Shown here: one piece after another, positions 1,009-24,158 of the stretch
Position numbering within the stretch: position 1 is the first letter of the stretch
Layout of the letters: the number at the start of each line of letters is the position of its first letter
Virus record (IMG/VR): IMGVR_UViG_2703718822_000008
Span: 1 to 42,750 of that record
Direction: 5' to 3' (one strand)
Source: a virus
Lineage: Duplodnaviria; Heunggongvirae; Uroviricota; Caudoviricetes
DNA: 42,750 bases
Notes under the pieces: generated by a model
The model's input: the letters and a program-made list of their open reading frames with translations, nothing else
What the model was told of the DNA's origin: nothing
The model's database searches: none
Position numbers and translations under genes: made by a program

Positions 1009-1083
1009 GTCCTCTTAGTTAAATGGATATAACGAGCCCCTCCTAAGGGCTAATTGCAGGTTCGATTCCTGCAGGGGACACCA
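1009..1083 (+). tRNA. argW: tRNA-Arg (anticodon CCU), prophage attachment target
   Basis: 75-nt sequence gtcctcttagttaaatggatataacgagcccctcctaagggctaattgcaggttcgattcctgcaggggacacca; acceptor, D-, anticodon (ctCCTaa loop) and T-arms (ggttcgattcc) recognisable; 3' CCA encoded. Confidence 0.9.
1069..1083 (+). repeat. attL core (3' end of argW), ctgcaggggacacca
   Basis: Exact 15-bp direct repeat with 41047-41061; the flanks on both sides differ. Confidence 0.7.
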
Positions 1084-2592: not shown

Positions 2593-4920
2593 TCATAATA
2601 CAAGTTTTACCACCTGAGTATCCAGATATGGTTTGCGAAACTGGACTTCCTGTTGTTGGGAAAATGGTGATTTCACCCCCCCCTTCAATACTCTAACTTT
2701 GCCCGTAACATCAACCGATGAACTTGAAACAGACGTGAGAGATCCGTTGGTCATTGTATAAAAGTTTATAGTTCCTGTTGCTGTTCTGCTTACACCACAT
2801 CCTGATTTTTGCTTCTGTTTATAGTTAAACAATACCAGCAGGCCAACAGGCATTGACTCAAGCTCAACTGCTGTAGACTGGTAGGTCTTACTGCCGTTGC
2901 TCATGTCAGGAGCCTCATCGTCTGGATCAGAAAAATTATACCCAAGAGTTAAATCATTAACCGTGGCATTATTCCCTGTTATTCCTTTGACTTGATTAAC
3001 ACTTAACGGTATGTAATTAAACCCTGCAAAAAGCGGTGTTAACTTTTCTCTAAATAAAAGGCCTGGTGGGTATACTACCGAAGGTGTACCATCATATGTC
3101 ACTGAGATAATATTAAGTCCCTTTTTAAGGGTTCCAATGCGCGTTGTTTGTTTGCCTGTAAATGATGTTAGCCCATTGCTGGCAACTTTACCTGATAGAT
3201 AAGAAGAGTTCCTGATGTCATTGAGAATGACATTGAACTGGTTAACACGATTTGATGAAGTATAAGTTGGGTTATATGGCTCAAATAATGTTACAGAGAT
3301 ATCGCTTGTATCACTCCATACAAAATACCGACAAATAACATTTTCATTTGAAGGCGTAATCCTTCCCCATCCACCAAGCGCATCAAGATAATCACCTCCA
3401 CTTAATATCGAAATTGATGGGTAGTATCTTGTATTTGAAGGGTATCCAATACCAATAAATGAAAGTTGAGTAGTAGGGATTAGGTTCTTATTTTTTACAG
3501 CTGTATAAACGCGCTCTTTTAATACCTCTTTTGCAGCATAAGCACCGATGTATGCATGACCTATCGTTGATGGATGGCTCTGGTCAAAGACAGTGCCGCC
3601 ATCACGTTTGGCAACATCAGATATGGAGTACGCGCCAATATCTGCATAAGCGTCAGTTGTGGCAACTGACAGATCCAGAAACTCAACTTTTTGAAAAAGA
3701 CGCTCGATACGCTTCTTAATGGCTGCCTCCAGAAAAGCCTTTGGCGCATCGTTATTATTTACAGTAACAAAGCATATCGGACAACCATATCCCCATGATT
3801 TTCTAATCAACTTTTCAAACTCATGAAAATACGCTTCAAATCCTATTGTTGGAAGTATTCCATTGTCATTAAAACCAAGGCTTATAAAAAGAACATCAGG
3901 AGCTTTTTTTCCATACGCAGCATTCTGGAAAAATCCATAGTCGAAGTTTTCATAACCCCAACCTGTGGCTAAAGCCTTTCCTGAAGAGGCACAGTTGTAT
4001 CCTTTAAAAATATTTGTTGTACTGTCAGATAGCATGTTCAGGCAATCAGTGAAGATCCTGAACCAGGAATACTTTCCGCCATTGAGGTTGTGGTTGTGGT
4101 TGGTTGAATTAAGATTACCATCGCTATCAGTTGGGTTTGGTTCCCATCCAGAACTATAGGCTCCATCCGTTATAGAATCACCAATGATACCTACATGGCA
4201 ATCTTCTACAGTTGATGGGTAACCCTGCTTATTTGCAAATTTAGCAATTGTTCCAAGAGCAGTAAAATCAGGGCCATTGTTAGATAGACCAACATCAAAA
4301 ACATGCTCATTACCCCATGGATCTCTTGTAAGTATTTTCCCTTCACCTTTTAACTTTGTCACATCATCTTCAGGAAGAAGATTGCATCTTACCGTTATAT
4401 TCCTTGGTATATATACATTTCCTTCTTGTCCAAAAATAATATCTCTGTTATCAGTGTTCAAATCTGAAACAAAACTGGTAACTATTTTTCCATTATTAAT
4501 CTCATCAAGCGAGTCACCAACAGTTGACGTTGCATAACCAACAATGTATGCACCATTTGCAGATGAAAGTTGATAACTAAATTGATCTGGATCGTACTTC
4601 AGCACATTCGGGAAATAGAACTGCTGCACACCATACGCATCATATACAGCCATAGAATGGCCTTGCACAGTTACGAACTTGGCAATCTGCCCGTTATATA
4701 CCGGGTAACCAGCAGCGTTAATGATGATTGGTTGCGAAACAGGAACGTGAGAACCGTCTTCGTTTTCCACATAAACCTGAATTTGGTTTTCAGGATTTAC
4801 CGGGTCCGTGTCAATTTTACCAATATAAATTTTTCCATTAGCTACGGCTTTAAAAGAACGAGCCATAGTGAAGAGTTGCGAAGGCATTCCTATAACCACA
4901 TTTGGTGTTATATTAGTCAT
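2593..4920 (-). CDS. Tailspike protein: P22 gp9-type head-binding N-terminal domain with an SGNH/GDSL esterase-like central domain
   Basis: From the ATG at 4920 the N-terminus MTNITPNVV...[38 protein letters not shown] closely matches the recalled P22 tailspike head-binding domain; SGNH blocks GDSITDG (nt 4174-4182), GFNDNG and DQSHP follow; last gene of the virion module; the track ORF extends upstream to 5022 but the homology start is 4920. Confidence 0.8.
2676..2683 (-). repeat. G8 homopolymer (C8 on the plus strand) inside the 3' end of the tailspike coding sequence
   Basis: Direct reading: tttcaccccccccttc; lies 27 codons before the annotated stop. Confidence 0.9.
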
Positions 4921-22154: not shown

Positions 22155-22461
22155 CTTCTACTCCGGCTTTTTTAGCAGCGAAGCGTTTGATAAGCGAACC
22201 AATCGAGTCAGTACCGATGTAGCCGATGAACACGCTTGTTATATAAGCTAGATTGCTACTTAGTCCGGCGAAGTCGAGAAGGTCACGAATGAACCAGGCG
22301 ATAATGGCGCACATCGTTGCGTCGATTACTGTTTTTGTAAACGCACCGCCATTATACCTGCCGCGAAGGTACGCCATTGCAAACGCAAGGATTGCCCCGA
22401 TGCCTTGTTCCTTTGCCGCGAGAATGGCGGCTAACAGGTCATGTTTTTCTGGCATCTTCAT
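22138..22461 (-). CDS. S: Holin/antiholin S (lambda S107/S105 dual-start)
   Basis: 107 aa [43 protein letters not shown]... matches recalled lambda S, including the Met1-Lys2-Met3 dual start. Confidence 0.9.
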
Positions 22462-23264
22462 GTCTTACCCCCAGAAGGGGATCTGTTCAAATTAGGAATT
22501 ATGGATATGGTCGCTTGAACAAATCCGGGTTACGGTTGATTTGTAACGGGTTTGTTCGTGACCGCATTCATGAGCAAATCAGGCGTGGATTGCGCCAACA
22601 ATACATGCCGCTCATATCACGAAGCCCAGCCATTGATGCTGGGTTTTCTTTTTTAAAGCGCACTAGACCACCGTATCCACAGAGCGTCAGCAATGAGTTG
22701 GTTAGGTCTGGTTCTTGGTGGAAGTACGCTTTAAAAAATGGGCTGAGGGTTGTAGCCCAAAATACTGAGGGAATGGTAAGGATGAACAACGGTTTTGCTC
22801 TGGGTGGATTTGGCTGTGGTGGCCGGTGCTGATCTCCGGCTTGTATACAGGCACCTTGTTCTTCCGAAGCTCTCCTGCGCGCATCAGCCTGCGCATTCAC
22901 CACACCGGAAAGAGCACTCAGTTGTACCGGCCAGTTGTGCCACTAAGAAATGCTTTCGCAGACCGTTAAGCTCTTTGCCAGTTCTTTAATGCTCTTACCT
23001 GTTGTGTGCCCATTATTAATCACACCGGGCCAGTGCGCCGAATTTGTTTACAAGGAGTCGGAAGACCTTGCTGACTTACAGGCTATTACGCCGCCATCAG
23101 AACAACATCATCGTTTGCATTTATCTTTGTGGTCAGTTTCTAAAAAACCGCAAAGTCGCCAACTCTGACGAAAACTATCGTTGTGCTGCCACAACGATAA
23201 GAGCACTCGGTGCATTTAAGCCAAGCCCCATAAGGGAGAATGCTCTTACCTGTTACACAGATAT

Positions 23265-23322
23265 AAAAAATCCCGAAACCGTTATGCAGGCTCTAACTAT
23301 TACCTGCGAACTGTTTCGGGAT
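23265..23322 (-). terminator. tR'-like terminator ending the short pR' leader (6S-like) transcript
   Basis: Minus strand cccgaaac...gtttcggg hairpin followed by attttttat; matches the recalled lambda tR' region. Confidence 0.7.
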
Positions 23323-23463: not shown

Positions 23464-23493
23464 AATTTACCCAACTTTATTCAAAAAGTCAAT
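23464..23493 (-). promoter_or_regulatory. Late promoter pR' (-35 ttgact, -10 taaatt) with the Q-utilisation region just downstream
   Basis: Minus strand ttgactttttgaataaagttgggtaaatttgac closely matches recalled lambda pR'; immediately downstream of Q. Confidence 0.7.
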
Positions 23494-23534: not shown

Positions 23535-24158
23535 CTAACGTGTGACCGCGTTCAAAATGTTGTCTGCGATTGACTCTTCCTTGTGGCATTGCACCACCAG
23601 AGCGTCATACAGCGGCTTAACAGTGCGTGACCAGGTGGGTTGGGTAAGGTTTGGGATTAGCATCGTCACAGCGCGATATGCTGCGCTTGCTGGCATCCTT
23701 GAATAGCCGACGCCTTTGCATCTTCTGCACTCTTTCTCGACAACTCTCCCCCACTGCTCTGTTTTTGCTATATCAACCGCGCGGCCTGTACCGTGGCAAT
23801 CTCTGCATCTTGCGCCCGGCGTCGCGGCACTACGGCAATAATCCGCATAAGCGAATGTTGCGAGCACTTGCAGTACCTTTGCCTTAGTATTTCCTTCAAG
23901 CTTTGCCACACCACGGTATTTCCCCGATACCTTGTGTGCAAATTGCATCAGATAGTTGATAGCCTTTTGTTTGTCGTTCTGGCTGAGTTCGTGCTTACCA
24001 CAGAATGCAGCCATTCCGAATCCGGCTTGTGATTGCGCCATCCCCATAGCAGCCATCACATCAGTACCGGAAAGAGAGTCAGAAGCCGTAGCCCGTGGTG
24101 AGTCGCTCATCATCGGGCTTTTTGGCGAATGAAATTTAGCTACGCTTTCGAGTCTCAT
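23535..24158 (-). CDS. Q: Late antiterminator Q (lambda-type)
   Basis: 207 aa MRLESVAKFHSPKSPMMSDSPRATASDSLSGTDVMAAMGMAQSQ... matches recalled lambda Q. Confidence 0.9.
   Translation of the reverse strand: MRLESVAKFHSPKSPMMSDSPRATASDSLSGTDVMAAMGMAQSQAGFGMAAFCGKHELSQNDKQKAINYLMQFAHKVSGKYRGVAKLEGNTKAKVLQVLATFAYADYCRSAATPGARCRDCHGTGRAVDIAKTEQWGRVVEKECRRCKGVGYSRMPASAAYRAVTMLIPNLTQPTWSRTVKPLYDALVVQCHKEESIADNILNAVTR

Follow-up and report, generated by a model that had tools for sequence, protein, structure and literature searches.

What occupies the interval between the tR' terminator and gene S in the lambdoid prophage carried by IMG/VR virus record IMGVR_UViG_2703718822_000008 (the window, by which we mean the whole 42,750-nucleotide (nt) stretch that was analysed)? 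The late genes of this prophage lie on the minus strand, and ~803 nt separate the tR' U-run (~23265) from S, compared with ~400 nt in lambda. The first-pass annotation of the sequence had estimated ~800 bp, about twice lambda, and had placed the expansion at the slot where lambdoid phages carry morons or tRNA genes; the measured distances bear this out, and the late leader is indeed expanded there. It had also described the interval as holding only repeated structured motifs, but this overlooked a distinct conserved module, here called M, which lies between the copies of the repeat and carries a reading frame like that of transfer-messenger RNA (tmRNA). M represents a widespread, undescribed family of tmRNA-derived phage RNAs with a conserved fold, a coding signature and complementarity to host tmRNA. 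Literature searches for tag peptides, tmRNA-like phage RNAs, RNAs antisense to tmRNA, and the P1 dicF-like region or transcriptomes found no description of it. The module comprises ~176 nt on the minus strand (23176-23001), flanked by two helices that we call P-x, and its parts are as follows.

23141..23176, minus strand: 5' antisense arm of M, AGUUUUCGUCAGAGUUGGCGACUUUGCGGUUUUUUA, 36 nt, complementary to E. coli tmRNA nt 67-106
23119..23140, minus strand: linker of M, GAAACUGACCACAAAGAUAAAU, 22 nt, with U(-5)A(-4) before the resume codon
23083..23118, minus strand: reading frame of M, GCA AAC GAT GAT GTT GTT CTG ATG GCG GCG + TAA TAG, encoding ANDDVVLMAA
23033..23071, minus strand: pseudoknot A of M, hairpin H5 GCAAGG...CCTTGT, whose loop CCGA pairs with downstream UCGG (from covariation)
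23001..23037, minus strand: pseudoknot B of M, S1 CGCAC/GUGUG, S2 GCCC/GGGC, conserved loop AUUAAUAA, tail CACAAC (from covariation)

An Rfam scan of the interval returned only weak hits to tmRNA models, at 23140-23086 (E 0.0098 and 0.013), and in eight independent phages these models align to the M frame alone, with a best E of ~0.01. In the window the frame begins in the context AUAAAU-GCA, and the encoded peptide has the length and pattern of the E. coli tag ANDENYALAA. The dinucleotide U(-5)A(-4), which sets the frame on E. coli tmRNA, is kept, as can be seen when the window context and that of phage CBA120 (AAUAAUC-GCU) are set beside AAUAGUC-GCA of E. coli, and ARAGORN run at 80% thresholds picks out this resume consensus and this tag. 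There is no ATG, GTG or TTG between an in-frame UAG 24 nt upstream and GCA, and no Shine-Dalgarno sequence for the frame. M therefore carries what defines the mRNA-like domain of a tmRNA, namely a start-less frame opening on an alanine codon, a hydrophobic, Ala-rich C-terminus and a stop.

In 132 of 132 tallied loci the frame has a length of exactly 10 codons, and a relative in a Vibrio phage has an open frame of 13 codons that ends VA followed by a stop. The 132 loci contain 32 nucleotide versions encoding 19 peptides, all of the form AN(D/E/S)...(A/V)A, with K at position 2 or P in last place as rare single exceptions. Among neighbouring versions that differ by one substitution, the changes divide into 11 synonymous and 8 nonsynonymous, against an expectation of 23% synonymous, and the extra alleles are distributed 11/8/20 over the three codon positions, the third being highest. 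The stop codon swaps among TAA, TAG and TGA and is never lost in these loci. A tmRNA-like frame on the opposite strand of the arm was also considered and was set aside; it has no nearby stop, and by eye, indels in the arm break it among relatives.

The fold of M was examined in an alignment of 49 diverse modules. Four helices 3' of the frame form two consecutive H-type pseudoknots, in which 96.2% of alignment cells can pair, compared with 33-51% in slid controls. Compensatory double changes were found at 14 of the 19 pairs (101 cells), and none of 500 shuffles reached the observed values. No equivalent of the first tmRNA pseudoknot (PK1) was recognised 5' of the frame, where the antisense arm or a cis hairpin is found instead. 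M resembles one-piece tmRNA (SsrA, RF00023) in its GCA resume codon, U(-5)A(-4), 10-codon AND....(A/V)A tag, stop and downstream H-type pseudoknots, and its sense arm aligns to ssrA nt 70-125. It differs in lacking a recognisable PK1 and the acceptor stem with G3:U70, T arm and CCA that are found at the ends of tmRNA, and in its additional 5' arm, which is antisense to the very stretch of tmRNA that M imitates.

Since M has no alanine-type tRNA-like domain, which is the defining feature, it is not a tmRNA. ARAGORN at default settings found no such domain in the window or in 104 related loci, bar one artefact, and the alignments of the Rfam tmRNA models extend over the tag region alone. The artefact is a 'tmRNA' with tag AKAVRLRKCSFRCGECAG in phage swi2 (locus L002, 2649-3023), which takes in the 3' end of the adjacent tRNA-Met and may mislead automatic annotation. 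A complete or permuted tmRNA was likewise rejected, with none found in default ARAGORN runs and relaxed runs (-ps80) calling on implausible tRNA domains in the pR'/6S region. The best Rfam hit of M is to two-piece tmRNA (RF04321), and this match is limited to model positions 152-213, again the tag region. Two-piece tmRNA, as is proposed below for M, has a tag template that must base-pair with an acceptor RNA. However, the gene for M has an unpermuted order and comes without an acceptor piece, and the predicted partner of M is a complete host tmRNA, contacted over its mRNA-like domain, rather than the acceptor/P2 helices of the two-piece form. Current tmRNA and tRNA finders accordingly miss the M family.

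Only in the Felix O1-like lineage is there a tRNA-like element with alanine identity 3' of M. In phage wV8 (locus L007, ~1665-1743) this unannotated element, which has no D arm, lies directly 3' of M and has a UCU anticodon-like loop. It has G2-C71, G3-U70, G4-C69, A73 and an encoded CCA, and it scores 31.7 bits against the Rfam tRNA model, although ARAGORN is silent on it.

The 5' arm of M is complementary to host tmRNA. Its three blocks are collinear with E. coli ssrA, UAGUUUUCGUC pairing with nt 96-106, GCGAC with the resume junction and UUUGCGGUUUUUUA with nt 68-81, the first and last of them exactly or almost exactly, so that the target comprises the 3' strand of PK1, the resume codon and codons 1-6. 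The duplex of the arm with ssrA nt 67-106 has a predicted energy of -38.5 kcal/mol with 32 of 36 nt paired, which none of 500 dinucleotide shuffles reached, and the same ssrA site is targeted by all 58 of 58 representatives. When hidden Markov models (HMMs) of the arm and of the sense arm were used to search 0.92 Mb around ssrA from 120 species, 85 of 85 hits of the arm HMM were antisense to ssrA, whereas 107 of 108 hits of the linker-plus-frame HMM were in the sense orientation on ssrA. When reverse-complemented, the arm is identical to host tmRNA at 28.9 of 32.8 positions but to the sense arm of M itself at only 21.5, and the match to the host is the better one in 48 of 48 representatives; mean duplex energies are -33.4 kcal/mol with the host and -16.1 kcal/mol with M's own sense arm. 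The complementarity is therefore extended, conserved and greater than can be accounted for by chance or by self-complementarity, as expected of an antisense RNA acting in trans. The target is almost invariant across Enterobacterales, and this tmRNA type is likewise the best partner for the arms of the Chaseviridae and of the Vibrio phage. In E. coli phage MLP1, of the Chaseviridae group, the arm contains an insertion of ~30 nt.

The geometry of the module suggests how it arose. There are 22 nt from the last paired nucleotide of the arm to the phage resume codon and 22 nt from ssrA nt 67 to that of the host, and the M linker is identical to tmRNA nt 68-89 at 12 of 22 positions, counted by eye. 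Because the spacing is equal and the linkers are related, M has the appearance of a snap-back duplication involving ssrA nt ~67-125, in which one arm of the inverted duplication would be antisense and the other a diverged sense copy with the tag frame, both since shaped by selection.

A sensitive search identified the M core in at least 758 phage records from at least 8 families. Carriers include HK620, P1, the Felix O1-like phage wV8, CBA120 and other Ackermannviridae, N4-like Schitoviridae, Grimontviridae and Chaseviridae, as well as prophages of Shiga toxin-producing E. coli (STEC), for example O26:H11. Among 5426 complete E. coli genomes M is present in 159 and annotated in none. It is found at 70-80% identity across phage families with little else in common, and the stretch 23159-22815 of the window is ~80% identical to unrelated lytic siphoviruses. 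Since Vibrio phage vB_VhaS_MAG7 has an M-like unit (locus L257, ~475-590) with the 13-codon frame ANDESNGEMRLVA and an arm that starts GUAGUUUUC, the family reaches beyond phages of Enterobacterales.

In lytic phages M lies within tRNA clusters, and in swi2 and ZCKP8 (both with a 10/12 match) and wV8 (11/12) a near-consensus sigma-70 promoter is so placed that the transcript begins with the arm. In prophages the arm is directly 3' of the P-x 3' strand or of a hairpin, and in P1 M is in the leader of the C1-controlled ban operon, between a terminator and tRNA-Asn/Thr. The P1 record (locus L004) has at 2405-2506 a 'dicF-like region' annotation and a terminator hairpin immediately 5' of M, here with the tag ANDDLMMVAA. 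Matches to STnc100 (RF02076) occur near M at 3694-3813 of the same locus and at 3194-3326 of phage cp21 (locus L005); at 33-41 bits they are below the gathering score of 47.

Trans-translation is the main bacterial ribosome-rescue pathway and affects the growth of lambdoid hybrids and of Mu; to our knowledge, how phages handle it is largely unknown outside the mycobacteriophage tmRNAs. The reading we prefer, to which we give a probability of roughly 40%, is that M docks on host tmRNA and so blocks or replaces its tag template. On this model the 5' arm would anneal to tmRNA nt 67-106 and hide the resume codon, the first six codons and the 3' strand of PK1. The M resume codon would then lie 22 nt from the junction, tmRNA's own distance, and a ribosome rescued by Ala-tmRNA/SmpB either could not read the host tag or would resume on the frame supplied by the phage and append (A)ANDDVVLMAA in place of (A)ANDENYALAA. 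On either side of M, P-x and P-y (the latter described below) would probably serve as processing or stability punctuation that frees M from the late transcript. We infer annealing in vivo, use of the frame by trans-translation and processing from comparison of sequences. The stronger version, in which a phage RNA with no tRNA-like domain displaces the host template and host tmRNA/SmpB writes the phage tag, is possible but doubtful. Were docking correct, M would be a new class of phage counter-measure against, or hijacker of, host quality control, and tag swapping would amount to a chimeric host-virus two-piece tmRNA and a new form of viral reprogramming of protein quality control. The presence of M in P1, HK620 and Felix O1-like phages makes these proposals testable with existing model phages.

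A number of observations weigh against docking. The arm HMM reaches E ~0.07 per 0.92 Mb, which is not significant genome-wide by itself, and since individual E-values are modest the complementarity claim depends on ssrA as an a priori partner. We found no host-specific covariation of the arm, and the arm of a Yersinia phage is not adapted to the divergent Yersinia tmRNA type, although the test is uninformative because nearly all hosts share one target sequence. The arm is also able to fold onto M's own linker and frame (-22.3 kcal/mol in the window), in a cis hairpin that is predicted for each of the lineages and in which 83% of cells pair, compared with 31-43% when slid. Because the arm folds back on M, its conservation could serve cis structure, and because the arm columns are almost invariant, covariation does not separate cis from trans. 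The complementarity could in part be inherited from the inverted duplication that made M. A template held solely by base pairing has a precedent only in two-piece tmRNAs, where the helices differ, and what a phage would gain by exchanging one degron-like tag for another is not evident. Cis and trans roles could nevertheless coexist, if the arm-frame hairpin were a lock that is opened by tmRNA binding.

If M were purely an antisense RNA against tmRNA, it would block tagging or trans-translation late in infection and its own frame would not be decoded, being instead a relic or a decoy for S1, SmpB or other factors with affinity for the mRNA-like domain. This draws on the same complementarity as docking, agrees with the position of the arm at the transcript 5' end in lytic phages and makes the fewest new assumptions, but we think it unlikely since the frame behaves as if translated, with its invariant 10 codons in all 132 loci, excess of synonymous changes, kept stop and kept UA. 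A relic frame would have gathered indels as its flanks did, and the Vibrio-phage relative also retains its 13 open codons. We regard as similarly unlikely the converse proposal, that the phage has a self-sufficient trans-translation RNA, with M as its coding piece, in which the arm acts in cis, as a substitute for PK1 or as a lock, the acceptor is a phage tRNA-like domain, in cis (P-y) or nearby, and host tmRNA is not involved. The cis hairpin of every lineage would fit this, as would the tRNA-like domains that are regularly found 3' of M, among them P-y relatives with canonical D and T arms and the wV8 element with its G3-U70, A73 and CCA, and tmRNAs do exist in mycobacteriophages (PMC4131195). 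However, there is no family-wide domain of alanine identity, P-y having U3-A70, no conserved NCCA and a mostly non-canonical T loop, and neither ARAGORN nor the Rfam tmRNA models find a tRNA-like domain. In addition, RNase P cleavage would part M from a downstream tRNA-like domain, and the arm fits host tmRNA much better than its own partner in every representative compared.

That M has no function, being an inverted ssrA fragment that was captured once and then spread by modular recombination with P-x and P-y as linkers, would account for the snap-back geometry (axis at ssrA nt 67, with 22 nt on each side), the mosaic surroundings and the P-x/P-y stems at the module boundaries. We judge it improbable, because the compensatory changes in four helices, the preserved frame, the near-consensus promoters of its own and the spread at 70-80% identity among families that share little else point to purifying selection rather than drift. 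The earlier reading of the interval, as nothing beyond duplicated leader motifs with boxA arms that act in late antitermination or processing, has in its favour that the elements lie within a Q-antiterminated leader and that UGCUCUU(U) in the 3' arm of P-x equals what we take to be the boxA core. It is nonetheless very improbable, as the family conserves the pairing and not the boxA sequence, the same helices occur in lytic phages with no Q/N system, and M is left unexplained. Least credible is a conventional small protein gene, be it the 10-codon frame or one of the longer mechanical open reading frames (ORFs). The frame is conserved and there are ORFs of 64-151 aa on both strands, but GCA is preceded by neither start codon nor Shine-Dalgarno sequence, and the longer ORFs have no PHROG match and are broken by indels in relatives.

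Previously recognised phage RNAs provide some points of comparison. An exhaustive survey in 2014 found ssrA in phages only in mycobacteriophages, Bacillus phage G and DS6A, with none in RefSeq phage genomes outside eight mycobacteriophages, and its authors suggested that the truncated RNA of DS6A, which comprises the tRNA-like domain only, inhibits tmRNA (PMC4131195). The phage tmRNAs (Bxz1 group, phage G) and the DS6A RNA are, as is proposed for M, phage genes that intervene in trans-translation. They carry the tRNA-like domain, whereas M carries the opposite half and occurs in enterobacterial and Vibrio phages. AgvB and AsxR are anti-small RNAs from lambdoid prophages of pathogenic E. coli that pair with Hfq-dependent host small RNAs; they share with M the predicted pairing of a lambdoid-prophage RNA with a host non-coding RNA, but contain no coding mimic of the target.

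The repeat noticed at the outset is made by the P-x helices on either side of M. A 16-nt exact direct repeat, AACAGGTAAGAGCATT, is present at 23254-23239 and 23003-22988, and a 23-nt repeat of 83% identity containing GAGTGCTCTT at 23211-23189 and 22922-22900. In both copies the 5' arm is complementary to its own 3' arm, giving the following two elements.

23196..23253, minus strand: P-x copy 1, helix ACAGGTAAGAGCATTC / GAGTGCTCTTATC with a 29-nt insert (repeat analysis and family covariation)
22905..23001, minus strand: P-x copy 2, helix CAGGTAAGAGCATT / GAGTGCTCTTTCCGG with a ~66-nt insert (repeat analysis and family covariation)

The first-pass annotation had described a duplicated unit of ~90 nt at about 23160-23250 and 22900-23000. 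An inverted repeat is present twice, as it stated, but the stems alone are duplicated, the inserts being unrelated, and the extents are corrected here to 23253-23196 and 23001-22905. Across 96 instances in related loci, P-x is a 12-bp helix that closes hypervariable inserts of 33 to 282 nt. The pairing is conserved through many compensatory variants, including AAGAGCAU/GUGCUCUU, AAGGGCGC/GCGUCCUU, AAGCUGCU/GGCAGCUU, AAUUGCAU/GUGCAAUU and AAUAGUAU/GUACUAUU, and we conclude from this persistence that P-x is a selected RNA helix, in keeping with the structured inverted repeat first proposed. The further suggestion that its arms resemble boxA did not hold up. Pairing is conserved across the family but UGCUCUU is not, as the 3' arms GCGUCCUU, GGCAGCUU and GUGCAAUU show, and since the arm varies together with its partner it is a helix strand and not a boxA. 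Although the P-x 3' arm of the window has UGCUCUU(U) in common with nut sites, it has no boxB-type partner, and the helix is also found where there is no N or Q, within the tRNA clusters of lytic phages. In the Chaseviridae loci L130, L255, L256 and L258 a stem other than P-x, also of 12 bp and with an insert, CUUCAAUGAACA / UGUUCAUUGAAG, borders directly on the M arm, in the same position relative to M as P-x elsewhere.

Directly 3' of P-x lies a second element, P-y, with the closing stem GUUGUGGUG/CACCACAAC, which covaries to GUUGUGCUG/CAGCACAAC in lambda and GUUGUGAC/GUCACAAC in other phages. The window contains one complete P-y and one reduced form.

22811..22906, minus strand: P-y, closing stem UGUGGUG/CACCACA, folding as a four-way cloverleaf
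23177..23198, minus strand: mini P-y, hairpin ATCGTTGTG-GCAG-CACAACGAT (compare lambda GTTGTGCTG...CAGCACAAC)

The P-y of the window has a D-like arm GCGC-AGGCUGAU-GCGC, a variable middle arm and a T-like arm GCCGG-AGAUCAGCA-CCGGC, followed by GCCA, although a 3' NCCA is not conserved in the family. In the common type of P-y the D-loop GGCUGAU is complementary to the T-loop AUCAGC. The P-y elements of three IMG/VR loci (L094, L098 and L117) have a canonical D arm, GCUC-AAUGGC-GAGC, and T arm, GCCGG-UUCGAUU-CCGGC, with an insert of ~75 nt in place of the anticodon arm. Neither P-x nor P-y in the window is matched as a tRNA by ARAGORN or Rfam, and P-y is tRNA-like but not a tRNA. As an alanine acceptor it was rejected on account of its U-A pair at 3:70, the lack of a conserved NCCA and the non-canonical T loop of most members. 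P-y also resembles ssrA nt 3-9 and 37-44 weakly in the sense orientation, but each similarity is at chance level (E 1.7-6.8) and neither was relied on.

Lambda has only one P-x unit, GGTAAGAGCAT...CAGTGCTCTTTCC, and then one P-y, GTTGTGCTG...CAGCACAAC, at ~44790-45000 of J02459 (locus L254, ~1190-1400). Both show the family-wide covariation, and the record used annotates only orf-64 in that stretch. Judged by this arrangement, copy 1 and the hairpin at 23198-23177 are a lambda-type P-x/P-y pair from which the P-y interior has been deleted. The mini P-y scores as terminator-like because the M arm provides a U-run. The best analogy for P-x and P-y may be the species 1 and 2 RNAs of T4, stable structured tRNA-like RNAs that are co-transcribed with the phage tRNAs; P-x and P-y differ in having hypervariable inserts. 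Their definition gives names and boundaries to unannotated structured RNAs of the lambda-family late leader and of phage tRNA clusters.

The interval is therefore a modular array of non-coding RNAs, in the minus-strand 5' to 3' order P-x, gutted P-y, M, P-x and P-y, which would be transcribed from pR' under Q antitermination. Its setting is given by the following features.

24158-23535, minus strand: gene Q, ending at 23535
23464..23492, minus strand: late promoter pR', TTGACT-17-TAAATT, in a region identical in lambda
23263..23291, minus strand: tR' terminator hairpin and U-run, end of the 6S-type transcript (sequence and lambda alignment)
22733..22758, minus strand: terminator-like hairpin GGGCU..AGCCC followed by U6, the same sequence being annotated 'tQ' in HK620
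22461-22138, minus strand: gene S, starting at 22461
22154-21678, minus strand: gene R

The gap between Q and S is 1073 nt in the window and 676 nt in lambda. Identity to lambda is ~96% over the first 296 nt, which contain pR', the 6S-type transcript, tR' and the start of the first repeat, and the sequences diverge afterwards. From M onward the interval matches HK620 at 94.7% identity over the aligned 74%, and the HK620 record has no annotation between qut and the terminator named tQ. Transcripts that start 3' of tR' and are not modified by Q would stop at the hairpin at 22733-22758. None of the five mechanical ORFs of the interval matches a PHROG family, and ARAGORN at default settings finds no tRNA or tmRNA between Q and S. 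The original statement that the interval has no convincing ORF or tRNA stands as far as the gene finders go, although 22906-22811 folds as a cloverleaf. The sole Rfam or ARAGORN hit of the whole window is a tRNA-Arg (CCU) near its start (1009-1083, plus strand), which is probably the prophage attachment site.

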